Source: an uncultured virus (IMG/VR IMGVR_UViG_3300030108_001449) (lineage: Duplodnaviria > Heunggongvirae > Uroviricota > Caudoviricetes). From it: 20,000 bases of DNA. The stretch is taken from the IMG/VR virus record IMGVR_UViG_3300030108_001449; one strand, written 5' to 3'. Positions 1 to 20,000 of the stretch are shown piece by piece. Position numbers and translations under genes: made by a program. Numbering within the stretch: the first letter of the stretch is position 1; each line of letters begins with the position of its first letter. The notes below the pieces were generated by a model. That model worked only from the letters and a program-made list of their open reading frames with translations, was not told where the DNA came from and did not search any database.

Positions 1-330
1 TCCAAGATACTTCAAGCCATCTGTGTAAGTTTTTTCCCACTCTGATCTGCTGTTTTTGTCTTGTTCAATTGAAGACAAAATATCAGATGACAAAGCGTTA
101 AGCTCTGACTCATCAATAAAGTCAACCAAATTACTATCAAATGGGATTTGTTCTTCTTCTGGCGTTTGTGCTATTTCTTCGTCAATTAATAAGCTGTCAT
201 CACTGACAAGAATTTCAGCAGCGTTCTGTATTTGTTGCTGGCGTGTTTGTTCTGGAAATACGCTAACAGAAGATCCCATCTCCCTGACTTCTGGAGTTTC
301 TGGAGTTCCACCTACTCTTTCAACAGCCAT
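1..330 (-). CDS. Portal protein, N-terminal 110 aa (runs off the left edge; not in the ORF track)
   Basis: Manual translation from ATG at 330: MAVERVGGTPETPEV...IPFDSNLVDFIDESELNALSSDILSSIEQDKNSRSEWEKTYTDGLKYLG, open to base 1. The FDxNL...DxxSRxEWExxYxxGLxxLG pattern is typical of the N-terminus of P22-like portals of marine phages. It lies directly downstream of TerL. Confidence 0.85.
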   Translation of the reverse strand, partial: MAVERVGGTPETPEVREMGSSVSVFPEQTRQQQIQNAAEILVSDDSLLIDEEIAQTPEEEQIPFDSNLVDFIDESELNALSSDILSSIEQDKNSRSEWEKTYTDGLKYLG

Positions 331-351
331 AGCAAATTCTCAACAAATCGA

Positions 352-1836
352 TTAGTAGTAAACCATACGCTTTTTAGGCAGAAAATTCACCTCATCTGGG
401 TAATCTTCATCGAGCGCAACAAAGCCTCCCTGCCTGAATCGCATTAATGCCATTGTCATGCTGTCCACATAGTCGTCGTTATCGCCATAAGGAAAAGCAG
501 CGCATTCTTCGATGACTTCTTCAGCAAAGGTATCGTCAGTAGCCCAGACCATTCCTGACTCGAAGATAGGAGCAACACTGTTCATTCTTGCTATTTTATC
601 CTGACCCCTGCTTGGAGAGTAAGCAGTGACAGGTATTCCCATTCTTCTCAACTCTTGAGTTAAAGGTGTGCCACTAGCCTTGGCTTCTATCAAAACGCAA
701 TCAGGTTCCCAATACCTGTATTCTTCGTAGGCAACTTTTTTAAGTTCTGGAAAATCCACCCTCAAACGTTTTGCGTCAAGCAAAATGATCTGGTCTGCTC
801 CACCTTCTTCTGGGTTAAAGATAGCCCATGTGGTGATTGCAGAGTAATCAGCAGTTTCTTTTTTGCTAAAAGCTGTGTCGTAAGATTGAATGACATACGA
901 GTAAGCAGGAACGTCTTCAGGCTCCCACCTATTCCACCACTCTCTTTTTACAATAGAGCCAGCCTCTGCTGTTGGATTTTGCAGCCACTGGCTGTTCCAT
1001 TTGTTTATGGGAAGAGAAGCTTTTACTGAAAGCAGTTCTTCTTTTTTCCAGAACTCAGGCCAGAGCGGAGTTTCGCTCTCAGGCATGATTGCAGGGAACT
1101 CCACAACATCCCATTGGTCTGCGTGTTCATCGCCTTGTTTTTTTAACACCTTGCCAACCAGATCTTTTGTGCTCCATCTGGTCATAACAATTATAATAAT
1201 CCCACCGGGCTGTAAACGCTGCCTTGGCCCTGACGTATACCATTCGTATGCTGATTCCATTGCAGTGGGTGACATGGCATCTTGCTCTGAATGTGGATCA
1301 TCAATGATCAACAAATCTGCGCCTCGCCCTGTAATCGCGCCTCCCACACCAGCAGCAAAGAACTCTCCTTCTTGATTGCTTGTCCAACGTCCTGCTGATT
1401 TGTTATCAGCTTGAAGTTTAAGGTCAGGGAAAATGACGTTGTAGTCTTCTGAGTCGATTATGTTCCTGACCCTTCTGCCAAACCTAACAGCCAGTTCTGC
1501 TGTGTGAGTTGTTTGGATTATCTTGAGGTTTCCTCTCAGCCCCATCATCCAAGATGGAAAGTAGGTGCTGGCAAATTCTGATTTAGAATGTCTTGGAGGC
1601 AGACATACAATAAGTCTTTTAAGTTTCCCTTCAGCTATCTTGTTGAATTTTTCGCCAATAATTTTGTGATGCCTTCCTTCAATAAAATCAGGCCACAAAT
1701 GTTTGACATAGCTAATAAAGTCTTTTCTACAGGAATCCTGTTTCTCAAGCTGATCGTAACGATTGAGCAAGGCAACAGCTTCTGCCTTATCTTGCTGAGA
1801 CAGTATGTCAAAGTCTTTGAAGTTTAGTTCAGCCAA
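352..1836 (-). CDS. terL: Terminase large subunit (494 aa, TTG start)
   Basis: Walker A-like PPRHSKSE, GGAITGRGADLLIIDDP (Walker B), coupling motif VMTRW, RNase H-fold nuclease QSYDTAF, IEAKASG and DDYVDSMT. TTG start follows the lysozyme stop directly, with GGGAG upstream. Confidence 0.96.
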   Translation of the reverse strand: MAELNFKDFDILSQQDKAEAVALLNRYDQLEKQDSCRKDFISYVKHLWPDFIEGRHHKIIGEKFNKIAEGKLKRLIVCLPPRHSKSEFASTYFPSWMMGLRGNLKIIQTTHTAELAVRFGRRVRNIIDSEDYNVIFPDLKLQADNKSAGRWTSNQEGEFFAAGVGGAITGRGADLLIIDDPHSEQDAMSPTAMESAYEWYTSGPRQRLQPGGIIIIVMTRWSTKDLVGKVLKKQGDEHADQWDVVEFPAIMPESETPLWPEFWKKEELLSVKASLPINKWNSQWLQNPTAEAGSIVKREWWNRWEPEDVPAYSYVIQSYDTAFSKKETADYSAITTWAIFNPEEGGADQIILLDAKRLRVDFPELKKVAYEEYRYWEPDCVLIEAKASGTPLTQELRRMGIPVTAYSPSRGQDKIARMNSVAPIFESGMVWATDDTFAEEVIEECAAFPYGDNDDYVDSMTMALMRFRQGGFVALDEDYPDEVNFLPKKRMVYY

Positions 1837-2292
1837 CTAAACGTTCTCCCAAGCTTCTCCTTTGAAAAGCCTTGACTCAGCCTCTCGCCTTCTAATTAAT
1901 CCATCAAGAACTTGTCCACCAGCACGATTCCAACGCTTCATTTGTCGAGGAACCTCTTCCAGATTCCCAGCGTTCAGTTCCTTGAGCATTGTAGAATCAG
2001 CAAGGTTTGAAGGGCCAAGGTTATACGTCCACGCAACGAGAGCATCGAATTCATTTTGCTCTAAATCTGTCTCTACATATTTTTTAACGTAATTTTCAAA
2101 CTCTGCTAAATCCTCTGCCAGCATCGTTTCTGCTTCTTCTTGGGTGCAAGTATCGCCATCAGAAACACCAGCAGTGTGACCGTAGCCTATGGTTGGTACG
2201 TCAGCACTGCACCTATATGCGCTTAACTCGCATCCTTCAAATGATTTAATTAAGGAGATCCCTTCTTGGGATGTTTTCAAATCGTCATTCAT
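1837..2292 (-). CDS. Endolysin, GH24 phage lysozyme (likely start MNDDLK at 2292, 151 aa)
   Basis: GISLIKSFEGCELSAYRCSADVPTIGYGHT, FDALVAWTYNLG, WNRAGGQVLDGLIRRREAE are GH24 signatures. Confidence 0.95.
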   Translation of the reverse strand: MNDDLKTSQEGISLIKSFEGCELSAYRCSADVPTIGYGHTAGVSDGDTCTQEEAETMLAEDLAEFENYVKKYVETDLEQNEFDALVAWTYNLGPSNLADSTMLKELNAGNLEEVPRQMKRWNRAGGQVLDGLIRRREAESRLFKGEAWENV

Positions 2293-2680
2293 CTTGTTTG
2301 TCCTCTGACTGATCAAGATCACGATAATACTTTAAAATGTTTATGACTTGCCTCAAATATCTTTTGACTTCAGCCATGTTCGTAGAAAGATTCTCGTAAC
2401 CTTTTGCTGTTAAAGAATACCATGCGTTTGTTGGAGCATTACCTTGCTCAAGATCATCTAAATACTCTTGCATGAGGGAGGGTGTCAAGACAGTCCACTC
2501 GACTGGCACAGGATCGATTTGGTTTGGTAAAGGAGGGTGATAGATAGGGGCTTGTTTTTCTATAGTCACCACTTCAACAGGTTTGACCTCTGGTATTTCT
2601 CTTTTAGACCCTAGTACAGAGCACGCACTAGCCAGAAGCAGTGTTAGAAATAATAAAATCTTGATCAAATTGTTTTTCAT
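2285..2680 (-). CDS. Outer-membrane spanin (o-spanin, Rz1-like lipoprotein)
   Basis: Signal peptide with lipobox LASAC, Pro-rich periplasmic segment, overlap with the upstream i-spanin, position next to the endolysin. Confidence 0.75.
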   Translation of the reverse strand: MKNNLIKILLFLTLLLASACSVLGSKREIPEVKPVEVVTIEKQAPIYHPPLPNQIDPVPVEWTVLTPSLMQEYLDDLEQGNAPTNAWYSLTAKGYENLSTNMAEVKRYLRQVINILKYYRDLDQSEDKQDE

Positions 2681-3068
2681 CTGTTATCTGCTTCAGGTCA
2701 TTCAGCACTGTTTTCGTGCCGCGATTGATAATATTTTGGATTAGCTGAGGCTTCCTGATTGACAGCACATCGATAGAATGCTTTGAAAACTTTTTTCTGA
2801 TATCAGTGACCTCGTTTTGAGCAACCATGTTTTCTTTTTGCAATCGCTCGACTTGGGCAACCATGAGTTTGTGATTTTGAACAGTTTGTTCTAAGTTTTG
2901 ATTTTGTTTCTCAATGGTTCCTTCAAGGGTTTTTTGATTCTGAATTGACTGCTCTAACCTTATATGAAACGAGTCCAATTCAGCTTGTGATTTATCGTAA
3001 TACATTTTGAAAGCACCAGATACAAGCACCAAAGCAACGCCTAAGCCAACGCTTAATTTAAATCCCAC
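2628..3068 (-). CDS. Inner-membrane spanin (i-spanin, Rz-like)
   Basis: Single N-terminal TM helix then a long coiled coil; its 3' end overlaps the lipoprotein gene by 53 bp. Confidence 0.75.
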   Translation of the reverse strand: MGFKLSVGLGVALVLVSGAFKMYYDKSQAELDSFHIRLEQSIQNQKTLEGTIEKQNQNLEQTVQNHKLMVAQVERLQKENMVAQNEVTDIRKKFSKHSIDVLSIRKPQLIQNIINRGTKTVLNDLKQITDEKQFDQDFIISNTASG

Positions 3069-3380
3069 TTATGACCCTTTCTTCCATTTTTTGGAGGGTG
3101 ACTTAGTTTTGCTAGGTGACCATTTGACACGGTTTGCCCAGTAAGCTGCTGAAAGCTTGCCCTTTTTTATATTTTTTGCATGGCGAGATTTGAACGCTTT
3201 TCTTTGACCTACAGTCTGATTGGTCTTGACACCCTGCTGCCCGAATCGAATGGTCTTAACCTTGTCGCCTTCTTTTGCTACAACTATGTGTGATTTCTTT
3301 GGATGATTAGGAGTTCTTTTTGGCTTGTTGTAACCAGTGACCCCTGCTCGTTTTAGTCTGGAATCTTTCTCTTTAGGCAT
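3069..3380 (-). CDS. Small Lys-rich phage protein (paralog of 13573..13857)
   Basis: GYNKPKR...VVAKEGDKVKTIRFG...RKAFKSRH...AAYWA aligns by eye with the 13573..13857 product. Confidence 0.8.
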   Translation of the reverse strand: MPKEKDSRLKRAGVTGYNKPKRTPNHPKKSHIVVAKEGDKVKTIRFGQQGVKTNQTVGQRKAFKSRHAKNIKKGKLSAAYWANRVKWSPSKTKSPSKKWKKGS

Positions 3381-3622
3381 TATCGCTTCTTACCTTTGTG
3401 CAGCCCATGCTTTGCATGTTGCTTGCCTTTCTTAGTTGCTGCCCTTTTCTTTTTGTTGGCTGCTGCCAGCTTGGCTCTGCCAGCTTTGGTTGATTTTAGT
3501 TTTTTGATAGTGGCTGAAGGCGCATAAACCTCACCAGTTTCTGATGACTTTTTACCACTAGGGGTTCGCCATTTTTGCTTAGTCCATTTCTTTAAAGACT
3601 TTTGAGATTTCTTCAATGCCAT
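3380..3622 (-). CDS. Small Lys-rich phage protein (DUF5872-like; paralog of 13034..13360)
   Basis: LKKWTKQKW motif; TAATG coupling with the next gene. Confidence 0.75.
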   Translation of the reverse strand: MALKKSQKSLKKWTKQKWRTPSGKKSSETGEVYAPSATIKKLKSTKAGRAKLAAANKKKRAATKKGKQHAKHGLHKGKKR

Positions 3623-3710
3623 TACTGATTATGCTCTTTCAGTTTCTGTTGACGAATCCATTCTTCTATTTTTTTTTACTTTCTATTTTTTGTTGTGCTT
3701 GTTTTGCCAT
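3622..3710 (-). pseudogene. Probable 29-aa gene broken by a 1-nt deletion in an A9 run
   Basis: ATG at 3710 and TAA at 3622-3624 both form TAATG overlaps with the neighbours, but the span is 89 nt. One extra A in the run at 3669-3677 gives MAKQAQQKIESKKKIEEWIRQQKLKEHNQ*. Confidence 0.6.
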
Positions 3711-3919
3711 TAGTTCTTGTATCCACCACCTTTAGCCTTGTACTGCTTTGCAAGCATTTGAGCCTTACGAGCAGACCATTGCCCCGGCTTCCCACCTTTT
3801 GATCCAGCTTTTATCTTGTTAAACAAAGCTTTCCTCATAGTGGGTTTTGTGTAGTTTCCAGCTTCGTTGACTTTAGATTTTGCTTTCTTTTTTGTCGTAG
3901 TCTTTTTTTTAGGAGGCAT
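3710..3919 (-). CDS. Small Lys-rich phage protein (DUF5872-like; probable paralog of 13360..13572)
   Basis: NYTKPTMRKALF...GQWSARKAQMLAKQYKAKGGGYK. Confidence 0.78.
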   Translation of the reverse strand: MPPKKKTTTKKKAKSKVNEAGNYTKPTMRKALFNKIKAGSKGGKPGQWSARKAQMLAKQYKAKGGGYKN

Positions 3920-3921
3920 TC

Positions 3922-4131
3922 TTACACCAAAAAATTAATTGAACTTTCCTGTCTGGCACGTTCCATTTGCACTTTGTTATTTTTTGAAATATACAGGGTG
4001 CTGTCAAGCTGTTCTACCCTCTGTCTTTGCTCTTCAACTTGCAGATTATCCATAAGTCTTTGATACTTTTGCTCTGCTACCTGTCTCCAAGCTATTTGAT
4101 TTGTTGGTGTTGTTGCTCCTATATCCATCAT
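3922..4131 (-). CDS. Hypothetical protein (about 69 aa)
   Basis: Fills the gap in the minus-strand operon and overlaps the upstream stop. Confidence 0.6.
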   Translation of the reverse strand: MMDIGATTPTNQIAWRQVAEQKYQRLMDNLQVEEQRQRVEQLDSTLYISKNNKVQMERARQESSINFLV

Positions 4132-4592
4132 TTAAAGATCAGTATGACCCCTCCAATTAAAATAAATGCACAAAGTAACCCTATAGCGGTCACCCCCATA
4201 ATCACCCAGATCTGTTGAACCATTTTTTTTCTGGCTGCTGCTCTGGCTTTTATCGCCTCCATCTGTCGTTTGTGATTGGCTTTTTGTCTAGCTTTAGCTT
4301 CTTCCCACCGCTGCAAGAGAGCTGGATCGTGAATAACCAACATATCGTGTAGCGACTTTTCCCATTGATCCCTGCGGTGCTTGATACTTTCGAGTTTTAA
4401 CAATTCTTGGGATGACAGGTTGTTGATTACTGAGTCTTTCTTTTCACGCTCAAACGAATCCAGCGCATCAGAAAAACCTTGCATCAATTCGACGGCTTTG
4501 CTGGCCCCATCGCCGACCTCATTGAGCTTATTGATTGCTTGGCTTATGGTGCTGAGGATCGCACCTGCTGCCGCGACTGATTCTATAATCAT
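4128..4592 (-). CDS. Coiled-coil protein with C-terminal transmembrane helix
   Basis: 154 aa, helical, ending in IWVIMGVTAIGLLCAFILIGGVILIFK. Confidence 0.75.
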   Translation of the reverse strand: MIIESVAAAGAILSTISQAINKLNEVGDGASKAVELMQGFSDALDSFEREKKDSVINNLSSQELLKLESIKHRRDQWEKSLHDMLVIHDPALLQRWEEAKARQKANHKRQMEAIKARAAARKKMVQQIWVIMGVTAIGLLCAFILIGGVILIFK

Positions 4593-4601
4593 GGTAAACC
4601 T

Positions 4602-4922
4602 CTATGGCTTACGCGACATATAGGCCGTGGCTCCAAAATAAAGACCTATTATGCTGGCTTGGCTAAGGAACAACATATCGCTTAGGGAAGACAAGGTTGA
4701 GAGGCGTTCTTCTGGTACAAACGGAAATAAAGGCAATAAAGAATATAAAACCATTGATGACATAGCAACCCAAGCTATTCTGCGCTGGCTGTCTTGCTTC
4801 TCCTCTCGCAAGTCCAATTCCAGCATTTGCGTTGCCCGCTCTAGTTCCTCATCGGTTACAGTGCCGTCATTATCTATATCATATTTCGCCCAGACACTGT
4901 TTTCTTGTAGCTTTTTTGGCAT
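4602..4922 (-). CDS. EF-hand-containing two-TM membrane protein, holin candidate (likely start MPKKLQ at 4922)
   Basis: Canonical 12-residue loop DIDNDGTVTDEE, then two hydrophobic segments and a GLYFG motif near a basic C-terminus; upstream of the lysis genes. Confidence 0.65.
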   Translation of the reverse strand: MPKKLQENSVWAKYDIDNDGTVTDEELERATQMLELDLREEKQDSQRRIAWVAMSSMVLYSLLPLFPFVPEERLSTLSSLSDMLFLSQASIIGLYFGATAYMSRKP

Positions 4923-4924
4923 AA

Positions 4925-5146
4925 CTAATCCCAAAATTTTTGGTTGGCCCCAGCCATTACAGGGCGACAATAGGCTGTTATGTTTTGTTGCCTGACTCCT
5001 CCCCTACACTTTGAATCTCGACAATTATGTTCTATCCAGAAAGCAAATTGCTGACATCTATGAATGTCTCGAAATAACATTTGTTCTGCACCATCAACTA
5101 CATTTCCATCAATCACAGTGATGAGCATAAAAGCTAAGATTGCCAT
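4925..5146 (-). CDS. Hypothetical protein, 73 aa, four Cys, hydrophobic N-terminus
   Basis: ORF track; fits operon packing. Confidence 0.7.
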   Translation of the reverse strand: MAILAFMLITVIDGNVVDGAEQMLFRDIHRCQQFAFWIEHNCRDSKCRGGVRQQNITAYCRPVMAGANQKFWD

Positions 5147-5149
5147 TAG

Positions 5150-5329
5150 TCATAGGATTTTGGCTAAAACAACACTAACCAGAATAAATGGATAGACTCC
5201 CCAGATCAACATTTCTAATCGTTTAAATTTTGCTGAACCTTCGTCCAGACGTTTTTCGATGTGCTCATATCTAATCGCGCATTCGCGCTCATGGGTCTTG
5301 ATTTCAGACAACGCCTCAGAATCAGACAT
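5150..5329 (-). CDS. Small coiled-coil plus C-terminal TM protein (XhlA-like)
   Basis: HERECAIRYEHIEKRLDEGSAKFKRLE followed by one TM helix; TGATG coupling to the upstream gene. Confidence 0.7.
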   Translation of the reverse strand: MSDSEALSEIKTHERECAIRYEHIEKRLDEGSAKFKRLEMLIWGVYPFILVSVVLAKIL

Positions 5330-5442
5330 CACTTTTTCTTGAGCGTTTTCTCTAAACGTGCTGCTTGAGAGGCGTGCATCTTACTTGCTTTTTTCAGCTC
5401 TGCAATCATTTTGCGTTTTTGCGCGACAGTCATTTCAGCCAT
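5329..5442 (-). CDS. 37-aa basic protein (not in ORF track; paralog of 8764..8895)
   Basis: MAEMTVAQKRKMIAELKKASKMHASQAARLEKTLKKK; TAATG and TGATG overlaps at its two ends. Confidence 0.75.
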   Translation of the reverse strand: MAEMTVAQKRKMIAELKKASKMHASQAARLEKTLKKK

Positions 5443-5648
5443 TAGTCTGACCTTTTTACAAACTTAATTGGATTGGTTGTGGCTCCATCTTTTGCCTTAC
5501 CAATGTTTAGGGCAACCATTTCTATCACTGGGTAAATGTACTTACCCATAAATTCGTTATCTTTTGGCGTTGGCGTTACGGCGCAAATCGCACTGCTTAT
5601 CGTGACAAACAGGCTGGCGTATATCAGTAGGTCTGCAATAAAATCCAT
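5442..5648 (-). CDS. Small membrane protein, holin-like
   Basis: N-terminal TM, TPTPKDN motif, second amphipathic segment; AAGGA SD upstream. Confidence 0.65.
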   Translation of the reverse strand: MDFIADLLIYASLFVTISSAICAVTPTPKDNEFMGKYIYPVIEMVALNIGKAKDGATTNPIKFVKRSD

Positions 5649-5657
5649 TTTTTTTCC

Positions 5658-6362
5658 TTACAAGCGATTCCCATCATTATCCACTGGCCACACGTTCAGA
5701 TTTGCTGCGACTGTTCTCCTTTCGCCTTCACCCTCAAATGGATAAACCATGTGTTGCAGCCAGCAAGGAAACATTAAAAACTTTCCAACTTCTGGTTTTA
5801 TTATAAACGATTGTGGGGGAGAAAGTCTTTCAGCGTCAGTCTGGCTGTTTCTGCCATAAGAAAACGCCAAACACCCATCAGCGTTCCCCGAGGCGTTGTA
5901 AAGTCGAAACTCCTTAGAATTTGCGTCTGGCTGATCCAATATTTGATCTGGAACCTTAGTCCACAAAACACAAGAAATGCCCATAAGTGTTTTGGTTCCG
6001 TGATCATGGATTGGATTATAGTCTTTTTCATAGCTATGGACAGACCAAATTTCGTCAGTCGCAACCTCCCTTTTCCCTTCAAAAAAATTACCGGTCATTG
6101 AACAAAACTGTTTCACAAAGTCTGTACCTAAACCTTGGATTAATGTGTTAAATTCTTGCAACTCTTCGCAATGCGGATTCATTGTGAGTTGCTGGCCTCG
6201 CGTTATTTGTCCAACCAAGCTCCCAGCATGACTTTTTCGAGTTTCGCTGACCATTAGCTTGTCAAGATACTTATTAAGAGAATCAGTTGTTTCTTTAGGC
6301 ACACGAGCCTCCAGCATAAAAAATGCTGGTATAGTGTGAATCAGGTAGTCTTGCTGAGCCAT
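5658..6362 (-). CDS. 2OG-Fe(II) oxygenase (TIGR02466-like)
   Basis: YNPIHDH metal motif, PEVGKFLMFPCWLQHMVYPF distal His, ERRTVAANL 2OG-binding Arg strand. Confidence 0.85.
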   Translation of the reverse strand: MAQQDYLIHTIPAFFMLEARVPKETTDSLNKYLDKLMVSETRKSHAGSLVGQITRGQQLTMNPHCEELQEFNTLIQGLGTDFVKQFCSMTGNFFEGKREVATDEIWSVHSYEKDYNPIHDHGTKTLMGISCVLWTKVPDQILDQPDANSKEFRLYNASGNADGCLAFSYGRNSQTDAERLSPPQSFIIKPEVGKFLMFPCWLQHMVYPFEGEGERRTVAANLNVWPVDNDGNRL

Positions 6363-6374
6363 GATTAAGGTTTT

Positions 6375-6590
6375 TTAATCAGCAGAAACCTCAAAAGCTG
6401 TGCTTTCTGATTCCAAATTGGAAACATTATCTTCTGCTGGAGCCTGTTGTTTTAACTCATTTAAAAATCGTTCGCGCATTGCTCCTATCGCTGAAAGCTG
6501 GTCGCCGTTAAACATGCCTCGTTTTGCAGCAACATCAATTAAATTTAAGACGTTTGCCAAATCGTGCGTTTCTATAAATTTAGTTTCCAT
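6375..6590 (-). CDS. Small acidic hypothetical protein downstream of the tail fibre
   Basis: 71 aa, LIDVAAKRGMFNG motif, AAGGA SD upstream. Confidence 0.75.
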   Translation of the reverse strand: METKFIETHDLANVLNLIDVAAKRGMFNGDQLSAIGAMRERFLNELKQQAPAEDNVSNLESESTAFEVSAD

Positions 6591-6609
6591 CGTCCTTGCT
6601 CCTGTTTTT

Positions 6610-8760: not shown

Positions 8761-8763
8761 AAG

Positions 8764-8895
8764 CTACCTTTTCTTAGTTTTAACTTTGGGTTTTTTCATA
8801 GAAGACAAATGCTTTTTTAAAGTATCTGCTTGTTTCTTGTGGGTCTTAGATGCCTTTTCTAAGCCCTTAATTACTTTTTTTACCTTACGAACCAT
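8764..8895 (-). CDS. 43-aa basic protein (not in ORF track; paralog of 5329..5442)
   Basis: MVRKVKKVIKGLEKASKTHKKQADTLKKHLSSMKKPKVKTKKR; TGATG overlap with the upstream gene, GAGG SD. Confidence 0.75.
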   Translation of the reverse strand: MVRKVKKVIKGLEKASKTHKKQADTLKKHLSSMKKPKVKTKKR

Positions 8896-9596: not shown

Positions 9597-9606
9597 ACGT
9601 TATATC

Positions 9607-11307: not shown

Positions 11308-11309
11308 TT

Positions 11310-12868: not shown

Positions 12869-13026
12869 TAAATGCCAAGATCTTTCTTCTTAGACATTTT
12901 CATCATGGCGCCGCCTTTAGATTTTTTCATAAGGGAGCCACCTTTAGATTTTTTCATCACAGAACTATTTTTAGATTTCTTTTTAGCTGACCCTGCGTTA
13001 CCTATGTTTACTCTTGAACCCGGCAT
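12868..13026 (-). CDS. 52-aa basic protein with MKKSKGG repeats (not in ORF track)
   Basis: MPGSRVNIGNAGSAKKKSKNSSVMKKSKGGSLMKKSKGGAMMKMSKKKDLGI; GAGG SD; the stop overlaps the next GTG. Confidence 0.8.
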   Translation of the reverse strand: MPGSRVNIGNAGSAKKKSKNSSVMKKSKGGSLMKKSKGGAMMKMSKKKDLGI

Positions 13027-13033
13027 AACTACC

Positions 13034-13360
13034 TCACGTATATGTTGTTACTTTACGGCGCTCGTTTAACACTGCGCCGCACCCTTTTGCAATCTCCTGC
13101 CGTACTCCGCCGCCACGAGACATGTTTCTTACTGTTGCTTTTTTCGTGTTTTTGACAACAGTTTTACCTTTCGACCCTTCCCGTTTTTTCTTTTTTGCCG
13201 TGGCCGCTCGTTCTGATTTACTTAACGAACGTGCTTTAGCTAAAGGAAGACAACGGTCTGGGTTTTTTTTGTCTTTTGAGGTGCCACAGTCACCGACAAT
13301 ATTTCCGCTGCTATCAATGCGCACCCATTTCTGATCACGCCATTTTTTTAACTCACCCAC
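13034..13360 (-). CDS. Lys-rich phage protein (DUF5872-like)
   Basis: LKKWRDQKWVRI...CG...RCLPLAKARSLSKSERAATAKKKK. Confidence 0.78.
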   Translation of the reverse strand: MGELKKWRDQKWVRIDSSGNIVGDCGTSKDKKNPDRCLPLAKARSLSKSERAATAKKKKREGSKGKTVVKNTKKATVRNMSRGGGVRQEIAKGCGAVLNERRKVTTYT

Positions 13361-13572
13361 TAGGATTTTTTCCTTTTAGATTTTTTTGCGTAATTAGGGT
13401 CTTTGCAATACTTAGAAGCAGCCATGTTCGCATAAGCAGACGGGTAGGTATCAAAAGTGCGCTTTGCCCACGCTTTTCCCGCAGGGCAAATCTTGCTTCC
13501 TTTGCTTTTTTTGGAAGCTCCGCCACCTTTCCTATAATAGGTCAGTCCTTTTGGCATAGAAGCGCGATTCAT
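13360..13572 (-). CDS. Lys-rich phage protein (70 aa)
   Basis: KICPAGKAWAKRTFDTYPSAYANMAASKYCKDPNY. Confidence 0.78.
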   Translation of the reverse strand: MNRASMPKGLTYYRKGGGASKKSKGSKICPAGKAWAKRTFDTYPSAYANMAASKYCKDPNYAKKSKRKKS

Positions 13573-13857
13573 TTACCACGCCTCACACGACCAATAACGC
13601 GCCGTGAACTTATCTTTTGCGGTATCACAATTATGGCGGGCTCTAAAACTCTTCCTGCGTTTAGGCTGGCTTTTTTTGATGGTCATGTCGGGATCACCAA
13701 AACGAACCATCTTAACCTGATCGCCTTTTTTAGCTAAAACTACAGACTTTTTAGAACCACCTTTTGAACGCTTTGGCTGGTTGTACCCAGAAAAAGTTTC
13801 TCCACGATACTCTAATCTTCCGGAAGGCAGTCTTTTTACGTTCTTTACAGTAGCCAC
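13573..13857 (-). CDS. Lys/Arg-rich phage protein (94 aa)
   Basis: GYNQPKR...VLAKKGDQVKMVRFGDP...RKSFRARHNC...ARYWSC. Confidence 0.8.
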   Translation of the reverse strand: MATVKNVKRLPSGRLEYRGETFSGYNQPKRSKGGSKKSVVLAKKGDQVKMVRFGDPDMTIKKSQPKRRKSFRARHNCDTAKDKFTARYWSCEAW

Positions 13858-13863
13858 GTGGTT

Positions 13864-14478
13864 TTACGCATGAAATGCGGTCATAGTGGTAAAGGTTGAC
13901 TGCGTATATTGTATATAAGCACCGCCTGTAAACAAGACGCCCTCTTCCGGAATAGCAACATCTCGGGTAACTGTTGCACTAGCTACCGTGCCAATTTTCA
14001 TCGTACTTGTGCCCGTAGGGGAAGTAATCAAAAAATCAATAGTTCCCGCCGTGCCGGAGTTTACGATGTACGCACCTTTCAGCCTTGTTCTCCCCGCGAA
14101 TATAACGTCTGCAGCAGAGTTGTTGATCCCTGCTGACACATTACCCGCTGGATCGCCTACGGCTGCAATGGCTGTAACGGTCTTAAAATACTTTGATCCC
14201 GTTGCAGTTCCCGCGTTTGCGCCAGTAATCGACTCTGTTTGAGAATCCCCATTTACATCAGTTCCTGTGACTGTAAAAGAAATCCCAGAATCATCACCAG
14301 CAGACAAAATAGTAACTATTCGTCCTGAACTAAACGTGCAACTGCCACTATCAGCAAGCGCACCGCCAATCGTTAAATTAGCGTTGTTACCCACAGCAGC
14401 GGCAGTTGAAATCCCATCGGCATCTAAGGCTTGCGTGTCAGCCGTAATAAAAACAGCTTTAACATCTGATCCTGCCAT
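13864..14478 (-). CDS. Putative virion structural protein (204 aa)
   Basis: A/G/T/S-rich beta-type composition, AAGGAG SD, position downstream of the capsid gene. Confidence 0.75.
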   Translation of the reverse strand: MAGSDVKAVFITADTQALDADGISTAAAVGNNANLTIGGALADSGSCTFSSGRIVTILSAGDDSGISFTVTGTDVNGDSQTESITGANAGTATGSKYFKTVTAIAAVGDPAGNVSAGINNSAADVIFAGRTRLKGAYIVNSGTAGTIDFLITSPTGTSTMKIGTVASATVTRDVAIPEEGVLFTGGAYIQYTQSTFTTMTAFHA

Positions 14479-14481
14479 ACA

Positions 14482-14628
14482 CTACTCCTTGATTTCACCT
14501 CGAAGGACCATAGCTTTGTACTCCGCGCTTCCCACAGGGGGCAAAGTAGACGTTTTTTTAGTCGTCTTTTTAGCCGCAGGTTTTTTAGCAGGGGCCTTCT
14601 TTTCCGTAGATTTTTTAGTAGTCGCCAT
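14482..14628 (-). CDS. 48-aa protein with histone-H1-like K/A/P/T N-terminus (not in ORF track)
   Basis: MATTKKSTEKKAPAKKPAAKKTTKKTSTLPPVGSAEYKAMVLRGEIKE; fills the gap exactly, AGGGG SD. Confidence 0.75.
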   Translation of the reverse strand: MATTKKSTEKKAPAKKPAAKKTTKKTSTLPPVGSAEYKAMVLRGEIKE

Positions 14629-14637
14629 TTACAACCC

Positions 14638-15354
14638 CTATCGGTTTTGTGCAGCAAATAAATAATCGATGGTAGCCGATTTAGTGCCCGTTGCAGAACC
14701 CGAAAGTTCCATCGCACCAATAGCCAGATTTTCATTGTCTGGAATGTTATCAGTGTGCGTAGCAACTAAATTTCTGTTTACAAAAAACTCTACAGAACCT
14801 GTACCTTTCACATGGAATCCTAACGTGACGTAGGTATCGTCAGCTATGTCTACTCCAGAATCAGTAGTAGTGGCTGTACCGTCTTTTTCCGTAACACAAT
14901 CGATGTTAGTGTCACCATCATCAACCTGGAACACAATGCGATCAGCCGCTGTAAGCATAGCCTCTGGGTTCGTCGCAAAGTTCACTGTCAACCCTACGCA
15001 CAAATCAATCGCGCTTCCTTCTGAATCACCAACTTTAATTTTGGTTTCAAACCAAACGTCGCGGCTAGTAGACAATGCAAATATCTCATTGCCCTGTACA
15101 GAAGCCCCGTCGTTATCTGTGGTTGCTTGTGAGGTAAGAACTAACGTACCACTTTCGGCGTCTGCGCCTAAAGCAGCGGTAGCACTGCTGTCTTTAACAA
15201 CAGTCCAGTCGTTTGTGTTGTCCAAAGCAACCCCAGTAAAATCGTCCATGTAGACAACGTAGTCTGGATTTTTGTCGATAGGTAGGTTTTCAAACCATTT
15301 GCGATTGCCGTCTTTCCCGGCAAACAGAATAGGACCAGTAAAATGAGTAGCCAT
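14638..15354 (-). CDS. Putative capsid-associated protein (238 aa, beta-sandwich/lectin-like)
   Basis: MATHFTGP N-terminus, acidic beta-rich body (FFVNRNLVATH), strong AGGAG SD, first gene after the capsid gene. Confidence 0.75.
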   Translation of the reverse strand: MATHFTGPILFAGKDGNRKWFENLPIDKNPDYVVYMDDFTGVALDNTNDWTVVKDSSATAALGADAESGTLVLTSQATTDNDGASVQGNEIFALSTSRDVWFETKIKVGDSEGSAIDLCVGLTVNFATNPEAMLTAADRIVFQVDDGDTNIDCVTEKDGTATTTDSGVDIADDTYVTLGFHVKGTGSVEFFVNRNLVATHTDNIPDNENLAIGAMELSGSATGTKSATIDYLFAAQNR

Positions 15355-15360
15355 GTGTTT

Positions 15361-15404
15361 CTCCTGTCGTGGCTAGTGTCAGTCTCCCCATGAGACTGTC
15401 AGGA
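15361..15404 (-). ncRNA. Structured RNA element, candidate Mu-gpT-DE motif
   Basis: Minus strand TCCTG-A-CAGTCTC-ATGGG-GAGACTG-ACACTAGCCACGA-CAGGA-G: a 7-bp hairpin enclosed by a 5-bp stem. It sits just downstream of a gpT-like capsid gene, the context in which Mu-gpT-DE was described. Family assignment is by context, not by covariance search. Confidence 0.6.
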
Positions 15405-15431
15405 TCATTGAAGAATACCTGTTAAACAGGC

Positions 15432-15459
15432 AAAAAGAAAGGGCGACATGCGCCCTTTC
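15432..15459 (-). terminator. Rho-independent terminator after the major capsid gene
   Basis: Minus strand GAAAGGGCG-CATGT-CGCCCTTTC followed by TTTTT, 20 nt after the capsid stop. Confidence 0.88.
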
Positions 15460-15479
15460 CATAGTAAACAAAGTTTACT

Positions 15480-16388
15480 TTACGCGCCCGGAGTTCCGAA
15501 CACGGCCCTCCAATCAGACACACCGAAAGAGTATCTTTCGCGAGCCTTGAACCGCATATTTCCAGTGTCAAAGTCACCTTCCATAGCTGTTTTAATTGGA
15601 GTTCTTTGGAACAACTTAAAGCCGTTAGGCGCATCCGTCTTGATGAAGAAAGCATCAGTATCCGTAAGGAAGTGATTAACTACTGCACCGTCAGGTAGCA
15701 TACCCATTGACTTGTTGGCGTTAATATCATTATCCGCCGTTCCGGGTCGCAGATTAGAGTTCAATACTCTTTCTGCAATGAACTGAAGTTCTTTAGGAAT
15801 AATTAGTTTCATTCCTCGAACCGCAATTTTTAGTCCTCTTTCGTCAGTAAGACCAGCAATGTCAATCAACATCTGCTCAAGCGAAGTCTCGTTGAGATCC
15901 GCAGCAGTGCTGAGTAGGTTGCGTTGGTTACCTGATAAAGAAGGGTGAGAAGAAGAACAAAGCGCAACACCATCTCCGATGGCAGAAGCACCCGCCGTGA
16001 AGGCGTTGTTCAACACAGTTGCAGCACGTACTTGCTTGGTCTGAGACATAGAACGCGCAAGAGCACGTGTATATCTAGAAGCAAGACGGTCATACAAATT
16101 ATCTTCGATAGCTTCTTCAGTAATCGAGAAAGCAAGAGCAATTGTCTCGTGAGTGTATCGAGCAGTATATGTTTCCTGCGCGTCATCAAAAGAAATTGCG
16201 TTACCTTCTGCCTTTACTGGAGCAGTACCAAACCCTGAAAGCATGACTTCTTCTTCAAATGCTCGATCAGAAGATTCCTCTTCGAAAATCTCAGCACTCT
16301 CGTTGTCATAACGATCATATTCCAGCCCGAACAAAGCATTTAAGCCGGGTTCAAGCTCCTTCGCCAATTGTGCGCGAGTAATAGCCAT
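15480..16388 (-). CDS. Major capsid protein (Mu gpT-like, HK97 fold)
   Basis: MAITRAQLAKELEPGLNALFGLEY, SDRAFEEEV, ITEEAIEDNLY, DFDTGNMRFKARERYSFG; GGAGG SD; followed by a terminator. Confidence 0.92.
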   Translation of the reverse strand: MAITRAQLAKELEPGLNALFGLEYDRYDNESAEIFEEESSDRAFEEEVMLSGFGTAPVKAEGNAISFDDAQETYTARYTHETIALAFSITEEAIEDNLYDRLASRYTRALARSMSQTKQVRAATVLNNAFTAGASAIGDGVALCSSSHPSLSGNQRNLLSTAADLNETSLEQMLIDIAGLTDERGLKIAVRGMKLIIPKELQFIAERVLNSNLRPGTADNDINANKSMGMLPDGAVVNHFLTDTDAFFIKTDAPNGFKLFQRTPIKTAMEGDFDTGNMRFKARERYSFGVSDWRAVFGTPGA

Positions 16389-16402
16389 GATTACCTCCTA
16401 AC

Positions 16403-17053
16403 TTATATGCCGGTTGTTGTGGCAGTGGTTTGAGAGTCGAATCGTGCGTTCGGTGAGTTGTAGTGTGCATTTATTCTTACAATCAACGGAATACCTGCAG
16501 CAGTAAAATCACTGTTAGCATCGTCATCAACAATACCCATGATTTTAAGCGGCAAAGTAGCCGTGGTTGCAATAGTAGATACACCCAACGCCGAACTAGA
16601 TCGACCGGTGTCAGTTGAGCCCGTTCGTGCAGACGTTCCCAAACTTGCATTAGCAAAAACAGCAGCAAGTGCTGTAGCACGATCCGTTAATGACGCATCG
16701 CTTGCAACTTGAAAAGTTTGCATCGGATTATCAGCAACAAGAGCCTTGACAGGATGATTCGTGTCAACGCTTGCGTTGTTAGATCCGGGCCAGTAATTTT
16801 TGAATACGGTCTTCTTTGAGGAAGAGTCCACATACTCTACGCCCATCAAAACACCCAGCGCAGCGGTAGTACCGCCCGCAGTGTCACCAGCTTGATCAAT
16901 CACGCCAGCGGCGAGAGGGATTACTAAGCTGTATTGATAAATGGCATTAGTGTTGTCAGAAGCAATTTCATACTTCGTCACACCTGTAGAATTTGCGGCA
17001 CTGCCTGTTAGTCCTATTGGACGCAGACCGTAAGCGGTTTCCTGATTAGCCAT
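16403..17053 (-). CDS. Putative capsid decoration/cement protein (216 aa)
   Basis: MANQETAYGLRP N-terminus, GVLMGVEY, small-residue-rich, AGGAG SD, directly upstream of the capsid gene. Confidence 0.65.
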   Translation of the reverse strand: MANQETAYGLRPIGLTGSAANSTGVTKYEIASDNTNAIYQYSLVIPLAAGVIDQAGDTAGGTTAALGVLMGVEYVDSSSKKTVFKNYWPGSNNASVDTNHPVKALVADNPMQTFQVASDASLTDRATALAAVFANASLGTSARTGSTDTGRSSSALGVSTIATTATLPLKIMGIVDDDANSDFTAAGIPLIVRINAHYNSPNARFDSQTTATTTGI

Positions 17054-17070
17054 ATTAGTCTCCTAAAACC

Positions 17071-17556
17071 TTACTTACGAGAACCACCAAAAGTAACACG
17101 AGATTGACGGTCAGGTTTGTCAATTCGCATCGTGGAATGTGCATTTTCGCGTAAAATATCCGTTTCTACAGCTTCGACCTGATCTGCATGTTTTGATGCA
17201 AAATAAGCCGTTCTTTCGTCCACTGTTTCTTGCGGAATTCTAGCTAAAAGCAATCCGCCAACTCCAAATACACCTTCATATTTACCCGTCTCCATGACTG
17301 GAGCTTCAAAATCCGGATATTCGTCCTTTCGGACTAGTTCATAACCTTCGCGTAAACGGCCGGTTATATTACTCGTGTCTTCTACGCCACGAGTTTCGGC
17401 ACGTATCCAACGATGTCTGAACCCCGGAGGTGCGGGCGGTGCATCTAATTTCGACGGTGGAGCCCACGGCCTACGCCTAGCCGTATTTGCTCTCGATGAC
17501 TTGGCGCGAGAGGTTTTTTTGATAGCTTCCATTGTTTCATTATCAGAATCTGTCAT
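17071..17556 (-). CDS. Conserved head-module protein (161 aa)
   Basis: WAPPSKLDAPPAPPGFRHRWIR, LREGYELVR, GVGGLLLARIP; between scaffold and capsid genes. Confidence 0.8.
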   Translation of the reverse strand: MTDSDNETMEAIKKTSRAKSSRANTARRRPWAPPSKLDAPPAPPGFRHRWIRAETRGVEDTSNITGRLREGYELVRKDEYPDFEAPVMETGKYEGVFGVGGLLLARIPQETVDERTAYFASKHADQVEAVETDILRENAHSTMRIDKPDRQSRVTFGGSRK

Positions 17557-17558
17557 TT

Positions 17559-18473
17559 TTAATCCTTCACGTATTTTGCGTATTCTTCAAGTGGCACTCC
17601 CAATCGTTTGGCAATAGTGACTTGGCTCGGGGAGAGTCGAACCTGCTTGCCGCGCCCTTTTTTAGGACGAGACACACCCGCAACAGTTTGCGTAGTGCGT
17701 CGGCTTTGAGTAGCGTCTTCTTCAAGATCAAACTTGTGAGGAAACGCCTCTCTAATTCTTGAATCTAAGGCATCATAATACTCATCACTGGTGCCGTCCA
17801 TACCTTTATCTTGTATCAATTCCTTGTGGATTCCAAAGGCAGCAAAGGTCATAGCGGAGTCTGTGCCAAACCAACTGTTGTTTTCTGCCCAGTCTTCAGC
17901 CTTTGGGTCAGGCCGCTGTTGTTGAGGTGCTGGTTGGTAAACAGGTTGTTGTACTTCCTGCTCAAATTGTGCAGCTTGTGTTTCACGCTGCGCAGCCGCT
18001 TGCGCATGACGATCTTTGGCTACCGCTAATTGCGATATTTTTTCTTGCGCAGCCAACTGACGATCCGTATCGCCAGTTTCAATCGCAGTCTTGAGTTCTT
18101 CCTTTGCCCGTTCGGCTTCAGAAGCAACGCGATTGCCATATTCATCAATGTAATTTTTATCCAGGTTATGAAGGCGCTGTTTAATCTGGCTATTTTCTGA
18201 TTGAATCTGCTGTGCGTAACGAAGTGCTTCTTCTCGCTCTCTTTCAGCTTCTCGTGATCTTTTAGTGAGCTGATTAATTCTTTTTTGAACAGACTTGCTG
18301 TACTGTTCAACGTCGTCTTCACTTGCGGTTTGTTCCGCTGCCGGTTCAGGTGAACTGGGTTCCTCGGATTCTGTATCCGCCACTTCTTCCAAAGTGACTT
18401 CTTGTGCTTCTTCGGTAAACTCCAGATCAATTTGACCATCATCGGCTTCGTGCTTGGGCTTTGCTTCTGCCAT
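17559..18473 (-). CDS. Capsid scaffolding protein
   Basis: Acidic N-terminus, long coiled coil (YSKSVQKRINQLT), C-terminal LSPSQVTIAKRLGVPLEEYAK; between portal and capsid genes. Confidence 0.75.
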   Translation of the reverse strand: MAEAKPKHEADDGQIDLEFTEEAQEVTLEEVADTESEEPSSPEPAAEQTASEDDVEQYSKSVQKRINQLTKRSREAEREREEALRYAQQIQSENSQIKQRLHNLDKNYIDEYGNRVASEAERAKEELKTAIETGDTDRQLAAQEKISQLAVAKDRHAQAAAQRETQAAQFEQEVQQPVYQPAPQQQRPDPKAEDWAENNSWFGTDSAMTFAAFGIHKELIQDKGMDGTSDEYYDALDSRIREAFPHKFDLEEDATQSRRTTQTVAGVSRPKKGRGKQVRLSPSQVTIAKRLGVPLEEYAKYVKD

Positions 18474-18484
18474 AATGCCGTTCC

Positions 18485-18931
18485 TTAGTTAAGATGAATG
18501 TCGTTAGGGTCTAAAATAGTTCCAAGTATTTCGTCGTCGTTTAAAATTCGAACTTCGCTACCAAAAGCAGCTTTTTTGTCACCGTTTAAACGAAACCGAG
18601 AACCTGCGTAGCGGGCAAAAATTACCCACTCGCGTTCTTTACACCATGCCCCATCCGGATACCGTTGTTTATCCGCATAAGCCGAAGGACCCATTTTAAG
18701 GACATAGCCTACTTGCGTCTGGACTACATCTTCTTCTATGGTTTTTGGGCTTAATAAAATACCGCCTTTGCTTTTCTGGGCGGGTTTAAAAGGAGCGATT
18801 AAAATACGCCACCCGGTAGGTTGTGGGAGACGTTCTATAACACTTTTATCTACTAAAGAAGGGTCTAAAACTCTTTCTTCTTCTGCGACGTAGCAATCAG
18901 ATAAATCTTCTGCTTCATTCGTTTCAGGCAT
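18485..18931 (-). CDS. groES: GroES/Cpn10-like co-chaperonin
   Basis: PTGWRILI, mobile loop KSKGGILL, VLKMGP, VIFARYAG, RILNDDEILG. Confidence 0.9.
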   Translation of the reverse strand: MPETNEAEDLSDCYVAEEERVLDPSLVDKSVIERLPQPTGWRILIAPFKPAQKSKGGILLSPKTIEEDVVQTQVGYVLKMGPSAYADKQRYPDGAWCKEREWVIFARYAGSRFRLNGDKKAAFGSEVRILNDDEILGTILDPNDIHLN

Positions 18932-19121
18932 CTTGTTCTTCCTGTTTTTTTAGCATTTCAGAAAGTTCCACCAAAACGTAATCACACGCTCTGATTTCAC
19001 CCATACACTCTCTGTAATGTTCCATATCCTTTATCCCACCATCAGTCATGAGTTCCTGAATCTGGGCTTTGCGGCCTTTTAGTGTTTTTTGTACAAATTG
19101 TACAACATCCAGACCGTCCAA
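18924..19121 (-). CDS. Conserved hypothetical protein (65 aa, TTG start)
   Basis: GGIKDMEHYRECMGEI; AGGAG SD; overlaps the groES start. Confidence 0.75.
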   Translation of the reverse strand: MDGLDVVQFVQKTLKGRKAQIQELMTDGGIKDMEHYRECMGEIRACDYVLVELSEMLKKQEEQDA

Positions 19122-19172
19122 CTACTCTCCTGTATCTTACTGTCTGAGTAACTCCGATACTATCGCAGTTTT

Positions 19173-19376
19173 CTACGCAATAGTAAAGCGGCCACCACGC
19201 TCTGCTGCGCCCATGCCACGCTTCTTACCCGTAGTAATTTTGGCAAACTCGGTGTTAGGCGTTGCTACTTCTTCCGCTTGTGCATAAGGTATGCTGCCTT
19301 GGCCCTGAATCTCCGCTTTTGTAGACGGCTTAGGGGGCTCTTTGATGGGACCGCCGTTGAATTTTACTGTTCTCAT
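19173..19376 (-). CDS. Small hypothetical protein (67 aa)
   Basis: ATGA overlap with the portal stop; ends RGMGAAERGGRF. Confidence 0.75.
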   Translation of the reverse strand: MRTVKFNGGPIKEPPKPSTKAEIQGQGSIPYAQAEEVATPNTEFAKITTGKKRGMGAAERGGRFTIA

Positions 19377-20000
19377 TGATCACCTCGTTGTTTCAATAGT
19401 TCTCTTTCGATACCTGCATCTATTCTAGCCTGTGTTTGCGCCTCTTGGCTTGCCAAACGCTGCTGGAAGTTAGATTCACGTTGAGCAAGTTTTTGTCGTT
19501 CAAGCTCAATTTCTTGCTGCTCTCGGGCTACGTCGTTTTGTTCCTGTTGAGACCGCAATTGAAGCTCTTGTTGTTTCAACTGAATTAACGGGTCTGGCCC
19601 TTGCTGTTGTTGCGGTTGTCCCGATTGCTGTATTTGAGAGCCTAGTTGGACGACCTGCTGCATAATTTGAGCAACAAACTGGGAAACCAAAGCTTGATAA
19701 GGCTGGTTAGTTTCGGCGTTGGTCAGCGTGACATTTGGGTTTTGTTGAACGAACGTTTGCTCCGCTTGTTCTTCTGCCATCAATTGCACATGGTTTAATA
19801 TGTGTTTTTGGATAGCCAACCCGACTTGTGGCAACGAAGAAGCCATCCCGCCTGTTGCGAAAATCAAATGCGCCTGTATGTGAGCCATGTGATCTTGACC
19901 CTTAAAAGCCTGTAAAGGTACATTTTCCAGCACATCCATGTTTTCACGTGCTGGATCTTTGGGATACGGCTCGTCAGGAGCGTCCGCTTTCAATATCTGA
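19373..20000 (-). CDS. Portal protein, C-terminal about 208 aa (enters from the right edge)
   Basis: Frame open to the window edge. PKDPAREN...LQAFKGQDHMAHIQAH...LAIQKHILNH, then DPLIQLKQQEL and a Q-rich coiled coil (P22-like barrel). Upstream of GroES, scaffold and capsid. Confidence 0.82.
   Translation of the reverse strand, partial: QILKADAPDEPYPKDPARENMDVLENVPLQAFKGQDHMAHIQAHLIFATGGMASSLPQVGLAIQKHILNHVQLMAEEQAEQTFVQQNPNVTLTNAETNQPYQALVSQFVAQIMQQVVQLGSQIQQSGQPQQQQGPDPLIQLKQQELQLRSQQEQNDVAREQQEIELERQKLAQRESNFQQRLASQEAQTQARIDAGIERELLKQRGDQ

Follow-up and report, generated by a model that had tools for sequence, protein, structure and literature searches.

Introduction

The Pelagibacter phages HTVC023P and HTVC027P represent an abundant group of marine podophages. 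The genome of HTVC027P is 57.6 kb in length, begins with the replication genes, and contains one gene each for the large terminase (TerL), GroES, and the capsid protein. In a published account of the group (PMC9599517), GroES and the terminase are named among 13 core genes, and a mean size of 58,776 ± 2,523 is given for the HTVC023P-type genomes (n = 82). Described here is a stretch of DNA of 20,000 nucleotides (nt) from an uncultured virus (IMG/VR record IMGVR_UViG_3300030108_001449), hereafter referred to as the window, which carries pieces of two portal genes, one at each end. An earlier note on this DNA, made from its letters alone, had read it as two head-packaging modules in tandem and had offered three explanations, namely a natural genome with two such modules (option a), a chimera of two related phages (option b), or a small circle whose ends interrupt a single portal gene (option c). 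To our knowledge, no other tailed phage has two diverged sets of head and packaging genes.

The analysis presented here favors the second of these options over the first. The window is probably a piece of a chimeric metagenome contig made up of DNA from two marine podophages, related to one another and both HTVC023P-like, and the join appears to have been made by an assembler rather than in a cell.

Portal Genes at the Two Ends of the Window

All of the sizeable open reading frames (ORFs) of the window lie on the minus strand. The N-terminal piece of one portal, portal_A, occupies positions 1-330 (110 amino acids (aa); the frame starts at 330 and leaves the window), and the C-terminal piece of the other, portal_B, is located at 19373-19999 (208 aa, with the 5' end open). 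When searched alone, neither piece matched a PHROG family or a portal family in Pfam, because the portal profile spans only residues ∼94-686 of the full-length proteins. In tblastn searches, the N piece matched the start, and the C piece the end, of one annotated portal gene in four phage records (CRP-901, CRP-902, DSL-LC04, and 023Pt_psg01). The C piece additionally matched HTVC023P and HTVC027P.

Each piece is completed in a closely similar contig. The metagenome contig MDSY01026248.1 (L009; 28,447 nt) is 99.74% identical to window positions 1-8091 over 8,091 nt and extends to the left of base 1. It contains an ORF of 831 aa, the first 110 residues of which correspond to the N piece with 100% identity, and which matches phrog_1216 (9.7e-43) and PF23899, SU10_portal (2.2e-12). 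On the other side, the IMG/VR contig L004 (12,776 nt) is 97.1% identical to positions 14474-20000 over 5,527 nt and extends to the right of 20000. Residues 605-812 of its 812-aa ORF are 100% identical to the C piece, and the ORF likewise matches phrog_1216 (4e-57). According to the earlier note, failure of either fragment to match portal profiles would remove the observation; the fragments themselves match none, and the full-length proteins do. The full portals are 47.5% identical to one another over 764 aa. The C piece of the window shares 31% identity with the corresponding region of portal_A, and the N piece is 36% identical to portal_B over 47 aa.

The genes around the two portals differ as well. 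Those following portal_A in L009, encoding GroES-like, scaffold-like, p161-like, p216-like, and major capsid (MCP) proteins, show 30-61% aa identity to the head genes of the window. The contig L004 has its own TerL upstream of portal_B, with 60.7% identity to that of the window, and a gene of 912 aa (1421-4159) separates the two. This 912-aa protein has a subthreshold match to ART-PolyVal, the ADP-ribosyltransferase of polyvalent proteins (27.2 bits versus a cut-off of 31.2). Three public runs, designated X1, X2, and X3, hold most of the window; the data are Logan contigs, each with a single depth figure. In X2 and X3, contigs extend 4,525 nt beyond base 1.

The end pieces of the window thus belong to two different portal genes. 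With the relatives of its low- and high-coordinate sides referred to as A-type and B-type, respectively, the contig has the portal and head genes of the B-type and, after them, the TerL and portal of the A-type. The earlier note is hence upheld in placing portal pieces at both ends and in preferring two distinct portals to one that is split, given that the flanks in near-identical contigs complete two different proteins. Two of its supporting arguments have less force. The paralogous cassettes amount to one blastp pair (p94/p103, 42% over 78 aa) and one phrog_14910 pair (p108/p80), which is weaker than had been claimed, and the difference in composition between the portal fragments is present but small (GC content of 0.39 versus 0.46). 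The cassettes lie one in each half of the window, at 3069-3622 and 13034-13857, with p103 and p94 sharing phrog_7595 and p80 and p108 sharing phrog_14910.

Gene Orders of the Relatives

Relatives were collected from IMG/VR with TerL (599 of 600 matched stretches at 81-99%, 80 kept) and with p233, a repeat-rich protein encoded upstream of the tail fiber (546 of 603 stretches, 80 kept). In total, 174 loci were annotated against the window proteins; this number counts a few contigs in duplicate, such as L007 and L118, as well as pieces of G001. The TerL of the window, TerL_A, is 81-99% identical to that of its 80 kept loci and 56-57% identical to that of the B-type records.

The A-type order, as observed in the long TerL relatives, is a p233-like gene, fiber, small ORFs, spanins, endolysin, TerL, portal, GroES, and, farther along, the MCP. 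The most complete A-type record, G001 (52,088 nt, CheckV 99%), was annotated over its full extent. Its head genes are followed by those for the adaptor, p96, and p156, and then by six large virion or unknown genes, the first of which encodes T632, a virion structural protein of 632 aa (phrog_3287). The replication genes encode a Toprim/VapE-like primase-helicase and a PD-(D/E)XK-like exonuclease, and after these come the p233 homologue and the fiber, the map wrapping to the start of the record. The gene preceding p233 in the A-type (G001, L064, L178) encodes a 270-aa protein and is not p156. The B-type order is portal, head, adaptor, p96, p156, p233, fiber, 2-oxoglutarate (2OG) oxygenase, small ORFs, spanins, endolysin-like gene, and T632. 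Complete B-type records are 58.3-61.6 kb in length, and two of them have direct terminal repeats; all complete relatives taken together range from 52.1 to 61.6 kb. As can be seen, a module of ∼7.6 kb that runs from p233 to the endolysin, referred to here as M, is positioned before TerL in the A-type and between p156 and T632 in the B-type.

The p156/p233 junction is present in 78 of the 174 loci and the endolysin (or spanin)/TerL junction in 67, and not one locus contains both. T632 comes after the lysis genes in seven loci. Of the eight B-type loci that extend as far as the lysis genes, none proceeds to TerL; in five of them T632 comes next, in another T632 occurs earlier within M, and the remaining two stop at that point. 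To assess copy number, ten long relatives, of 35-62 kb, were queried with either the MCP or the portal, and none of the ten yielded a second copy of the gene used. Each of five A-type records (35-52 kb) has one MCP, the two matches in G004 being one gene with an internal TGA. Of the five B-type records, all but one have a single portal, the exception being a 69%-complete fragment with none. The five B-type records searched for TerL (G006-G008, G010, and G011) have one each and no second. In the four with an intact gene, it is 56-57% identical to the TerL of the window; in G011, where the single gene is split across the terminal repeat, the identity is 51-57%. The phrase "two head-packaging modules in tandem" is therefore apt for the contig but most likely describes no phage, as none of the 174 relatives has both junctions and none of the ten long records yielded a second copy of the gene searched for.

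The positional polymorphism of M between two sister lineages, with partial exchange at up to 96% aa identity, is real. The module follows p156 in the B-type contigs L101, L106, L112, and L116, and precedes TerL in G001 (L045, L096, L097). Two of its proteins, p122 and p154, are 93-96% identical across the lineages (L107, L112, L116, L120). In some B-type contigs T632 lies inside M, after p60 (L107, 8391-10280; L110, 6254-7760), and the inner order of the module is thus variable. Two peculiarities of individual records were also observed. In G007, the record behind L107, the portal match at 5091-6836 falls within a 1,629-aa open frame. A portal has only about half this length, and a fusion with the upstream gene is possible. 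The MCP of G004 (L076, 13894-15096, from a 43-kb relative) is in two pieces of 97 and 212 aa, ∼270 nt apart with a TGA, for which an insertion, a frameshift, or an assembly error are all possible explanations.

Probable Switch of Parentage Within the Fiber Gene

For each 250-nt step along the window, the best matches to the A-type and to the B-type loci were recorded. From 1 to 8000, the best A-type match is 96-100% (L009), whereas the best B-type match is 85% or less, or is missing. The A-type identity is 94% at 8001-8250 (L178) and 82-89% at 8251-8750, and not a single 250-nt chunk between 8751 and 10750 has an A-type match. Above 10750, A-type matches are partial, at 66-80%, and cover at most about two-thirds of a chunk. 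From 8751 upward the B-type loci match at 74-100%, and at 93-100% outside of the p233 repeats and a cassette encoding p204. The individual regions display the same division. The fiber region from 6400 to 8091 is 99.76% identical to L009. The p233 protein is 83-87% identical to its counterparts in B-type loci versus 35-45% for the A-type homologues, and p156, p96, and the adaptor show 97-99% aa identity to those of L098, L099, and L103. Positions 12007-15354 are 93-100% identical in nucleotides to L004, L103, L008, and L120, with the exception of the p204 cassette, and the head module (15480-18931) is 97% identical in nucleotides to L004.

The 31-mers of the window occur only in A-type loci up to 8607 and only in B-type loci from 8708 on, with those in between occurring in neither. 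In the alignment, the window is the same as L009 over 8661-8686, and from ∼8709 to 8886, a stretch that spans the start of the fiber gene and a small basic ORF in the spacer, it agrees with the B-type L103 at all but two positions. The switch of parentage would accordingly fall at 8607-8708, corresponding to about codons 18-52 of the fiber gene, with A-type sequence to the left and B-type to the right. The contigs L099 and L103, which are the B-type contigs nearest to the window over the head-to-p156 block, end within ∼80 nt of this switch, which suggests that assemblies commonly break near it. In the record of L098, the fiber that follows p233 is only 49% identical to that of the window. Between the A-type and the B-type loci, 498 exact 55-mers are common, and M contains some of these (window positions 4073-4136 are one example). 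In a de Bruijn graph, the genomes of both types would therefore be in contact.

Position 8091 was also considered as the join and was rejected, for the fiber of the A-type L178 crosses it in the form observed in the window, with identities of 93% and 81%. Given that L009 has 426 extra bases at this point and that L178 crosses it, position 8091 marks a difference between A-type fiber variants. An exact 40-mer across 8091 had no match in IMG/VR, and a 25-mer just to the right of it found L178.

Distribution of the Join and Contig Depth

In exact protein look-ups, the longest contig was 68,439 nt for every window protein found. This contig, which probably is the source of the window, exceeds the complete relatives by 7-16 kb in length. 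The exact fiber protein, which spans the join, occurs on one contig only, whereas the neighboring proteins occur on 6-193. The exact TerL is found on 17 other contigs, the longest of which has 55,891 nt, and on three more under a Joint Genome Institute (JGI) spelling with L as the first residue. Neither the exact p233 (with M or V first) nor the exact endolysin was in the protein collection, perhaps owing to other start calls. Searches of IMG/VR and metagenome contigs with exact window patterns returned only fragments and the near-identical L009. The contig that carries a 302-aa MCP from the same 90% cluster as that of the window measures 76,953 nt, which again exceeds the complete relatives, and there may be other over-long contigs of this group.

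The depths of the contigs covering the A part versus the B part are 18.0-18.9 versus 5.1-13.9 in X2, 46-57 versus 16-21 in X3, and 147-179 versus 46-84 in X1. The A part is covered by contigs two to three times as deep as those of the B part. With one figure per contig, this difference is a weak hint only. The dominant A-type population follows L009 at 8091, as a 3,003-nt contig in X2 and as a loose end in X3, the latter identical to L009 from its position 18068 on. A hole in the window-type contigs at 8266-8311 in X2 and X3 was not counted, as holes in Logan contigs prove nothing.

Gene Content of the Window

Beyond the portal_A piece, TerL_A (352-1836) is identified by matches to phrog_38 (3.7e-106) and Terminase_6C (3.3e-10). 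The lysis region, 1837-3068, is composed of the endolysin gene (1837-2322; Phage_lysozyme, 6.6e-48) and two spanin-like ORFs (2285-2680 and 2628-3068), and has further matches to phrog_7 (8.8e-61), phrog_812 (7.6e-14), and phrog_739 (2.2e-08). The next ∼3.5 kb, from 3069 to 6590, contains the accessory small ORFs of the movable module, the proteins of which are 99-100% identical to those of L009. A 2OG-Fe(II) oxygenase is encoded at 5658-6362 (2OG-FeII_Oxy_5, 9.3e-14). The tail fiber, a protein of 716 aa encoded at 6610-8760, matches phrog_18345 (1.1e-54) and Peptidase_S74 (4e-09), with the first codons of its gene being B-like and the remainder A-like.

The spacer between the fiber gene and p233 holds the lysine-rich ORF (8764-8895 in the ORF list), which is 43 aa long when read from its ATG. 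Among the B-type contigs, L103 and L098 have this spacer with the ORF, whereas L099 lacks it, as do the A-type L009 and L178; in run X2, one contig connects 8760 to 8899 without it. The gene for p233 (8895-9596), to judge from the identities given above, is the B-type version. The protein is rich in VTG/VSV repeats, and the GC content of 0.53 is the maximum for the window. Three 33-nt tandem repeats at the 3' end of the gene (8910-9015) give rise to three copies of the motif IDDSQTP.WS. The best identity of p233 among the fetched loci is no higher than 87%, although the adjacent p156 is 99% identical in the same contigs.

The B-type genes for p156, p96, and an SU10-type adaptor (10367-11005; SU10_adaptor, 3.4e-28) together occupy 9607-11005. 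The ∼4.4 kb between the adaptor and the MCP (11002-15354) contains virion and unknown genes that are assigned to the B-type by nucleotide identity to its contigs. The p204 cassette is located at 13857-14474, and its place is taken by an unrelated 134-aa gene in L004, L098, L099, and L103, which are otherwise 92-97% identical to the window. Its boundary at 14474 is also marked by a loose end in run X2. The B-type head module comprises, in order of increasing coordinate, the MCP (15480-16388; Phage_capsid_4, 3.3e-15), the unknown genes for p216 and p161 (both within 15480-18931), a scaffold-like protein of 304 aa (17559-18473; phrog_28737, 4.9e-68), and a GroES-like protein (18485-18931; Cpn10, 3.3e-06; phrog_3188, 4.7e-11). 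Two small ORFs in the ORF list lie between the GroES-like gene and the portal_B piece.

As for replication genes, none of the 17 proteins of at least 150 aa encoded at 23-51 kb in G001 had a tblastn match in the window. A megablast search with the window found no match among GenBank phages. Direct DNA repeats of the kind that would mark a duplication were limited to three short families, none of which connects the halves of the window. The GC and third-position GC (GC3) contents per gene show no clear difference between the A and B parts.

Proposed Origin of the Contig

In the proposed scheme, the two parents share M, comprising p233, the fiber, the accessory genes, the spanins, and the endolysin, at different positions on their circular maps. 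The A-type map reads M, TerL, portal, head, adaptor, p156, T632 with the other virion genes, and replication genes, and the B-type map TerL, the extra gene, portal, head, adaptor, p156, M, and T632 with the rest. An assembly path would enter M from the B-type genome, by way of portal_B, its head genes, p156, and its p233, and would exit into the A-type genome through the fiber, the lysis genes, TerL_A, and portal_A. Since M holds stretches conserved between the types, such a crossing is possible, and its outcome would be a contig on which an A-type packaging module comes after a B-type head module. In agreement with this scheme, the two sides of the window match different natural genome types, and their combined order is observed in none of the 174 relatives. 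The B block, from the start of L004 to the switch, measures ∼17.3 kb, and 68.4 kb less this block leaves ∼51 kb, which would be about one A-type genome. The capsids of this group package 52-62 kb, and a genome of 68 kb would be expected to be too large for them. Among microdiverse marine phages, contigs of chimeric origin are common.

Several observations nevertheless weigh against an assembly chimera. No fetched pair of A-type and B-type contigs has an exact stretch in common at 8607-8708, where only short motifs are shared, and a graph path for a misjoin at this location is accordingly hypothetical. The run data consist of Logan contigs only, and a break in coverage or an absence of spanning reads at the switch is so far a prediction of the chimera. 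The size of the source contig is itself derived from cluster look-ups. In X1, the 5' part of the window-type fiber has a depth of 45.8, near the values of 46.5-84.2 for the B-part contigs, as one real molecule would also predict. Because the family is highly mosaic, breaks in identity occur in real genomes as well, and a single natural crossover inside M would be expected to yield exactly this arrangement.

A real molecule, as in the earlier note's option (a), would have arisen from a single crossover between co-infecting A-type and B-type phages, located in the fiber gene at its conserved 5' end. It could take the form of a co-integrate, or of an A-type genome with an inserted B-type block of ∼17 kb carrying TerL, portal, and head genes. 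We regard this origin, in either form, as unlikely. The maps do suggest that one crossover in M between the two orders would give B-type head genes, M, TerL_A, and portal_A in succession, and the switch sits at the N-terminal boundary of the fiber, which is a usual site of natural recombination. The depth of the window-type fiber in X1 is consistent with such a molecule, as is the sum of the B block and an A-type genome of ∼52 kb, which comes close to 68.4 kb. Against it stand the absence of both junctions together from the 174 related loci, the lack of a second MCP or portal in the ten long records and of a second TerL in the five B-type records searched, a length 7-16 kb above that of the complete relatives, and the restriction of the exact hybrid fiber to one contig. 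In addition, the X2 contig with a depth of 18.9 runs unbroken through 8091 along the path of L009.

The wrong turn of the assembler might instead lie farther to the left, somewhere in 1837-8607 at the end of the tract in common with the A-type phage, if a B-type phage truly had acquired an A-like fiber and M by natural exchange. The p122 and p154 proteins of the B-type L107, L112, L116, and L120, at 93-96% aa identity to those of the window, speak for such exchange, and exact stretches of at least 55 nt are common to both types at 4073-4136. We consider this quite improbable, however, in that contig depth is flat over 1-8004 in X2 (18.0-18.9) and in X3 (46-57), with no added B-type depth at 1837-8091 relative to the TerL and portal part (a weak point, resting on contigs), and no fetched B-type locus matches 6751-7750 or 8001-8250. 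Least credible is a single portal split by a small circle of ∼21-22 kb, with structural and lysis genes but no replication genes and a satellite-like or gene transfer agent (GTA)-like character. The window does lack replication genes, to judge from the 17 G001 proteins searched for, and both end pieces align to a single portal gene in reference phages. The proposal fails because the near-identical flanks complete two different portals. Specifically, the N piece continues into portal_A in contigs of 99-100% identity, and the C-terminus of portal_A is only 31% identical to the C piece of the window; the latter belongs to portal_B, whose N-terminus is in turn only 36% identical, over 47 aa, to the N piece. 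Furthermore, the X2 and X3 contigs run 4,525 nt past base 1, and the probable source contig is 68 kb in length.

Taken at face value, the contig would be the first case of a tailed phage in which the portal, terminase, and capsid genes are all present as two diverged sets. Were the molecule real, a tailed phage would have two complete head-packaging modules of divergent sequence in its genome, and the molecule could also have captured the move of a module between map positions. More likely, two abundant marine phages have been stitched together, which matters for taxonomy, genome-size statistics, host prediction, and counts of "novel" gene orders. The module M, with its two positions and its exchange at up to 96% aa identity, can be viewed as both a recombination hot spot and an assembly trap. 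The underlying biology, that of two sister lineages of an abundant marine podophage group with M at two positions, is modestly interesting and real.

Comparison with Known Systems

The structural region of the window contains TerL, portal, GroES-like, MCP, and adaptor genes in the order of the HTVC023P-like phages and homologous to those of the cultured members. On the basis of these homologies, the window genes are placed in the HTVC023P-like marine podophage group, as a new member of a known group. The single-set genome of 52-62 kb that characterizes the group is not what the window presents, with its two portal pieces and no replication gene. The TerL proteins of HTVC023P and HTVC027P are 57% identical to that of the window, and the portal_B C piece is 44-47% identical to its counterparts there. 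In HTVC027P, the TerL, GroES, and capsid genes are in the same order as in the window, and the gene matched by portal_B, annotated as encoding a hypothetical protein, lies between TerL and GroES. The two phages differ in being distant in sequence and in having a single portal versus two in the window, and the 41 kb of HTVC027P examined has no fiber and lysis genes directly before TerL, unlike the A-type relatives of the window.

The end pieces of the window match the N and C parts of the single portal in DSL-LC04, 023Pt_psg01, and the Roseobacter phages CRP-901 and CRP-902, all of which share the GroES, MCP, adaptor order. The TerL proteins of DSL-LC04 and 023Pt_psg01 are 60-61% identical to that of the window, and in DSL-LC04 a large gene lies between TerL and portal, as in L004, with the annotation there of "PcfJ-like". 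These four phages differ from the window in having genomes of 52-62 kb with one head and packaging set, and the CRP TerL proteins are only 36% identical. With regard to the SU10-type families (PF24175 and PF23899), the window adaptor matches SU10_adaptor with 3.4e-28, and the full portal_A matches SU10_portal with 2.2e-12, above the cut-off. The likeness refers to these two proteins; portal_B reaches no Pfam family.

The contig as a whole resembles the chimeras that arise from inter-genome repeats in metagenome assembly. It differs from them in that the misjoin is here deduced from contigs. In common with such chimeras, its two sides match different genome types that share exact repeats of at least 55 nt, its length exceeds that of every complete relative, and the gene bearing the join has been seen once.

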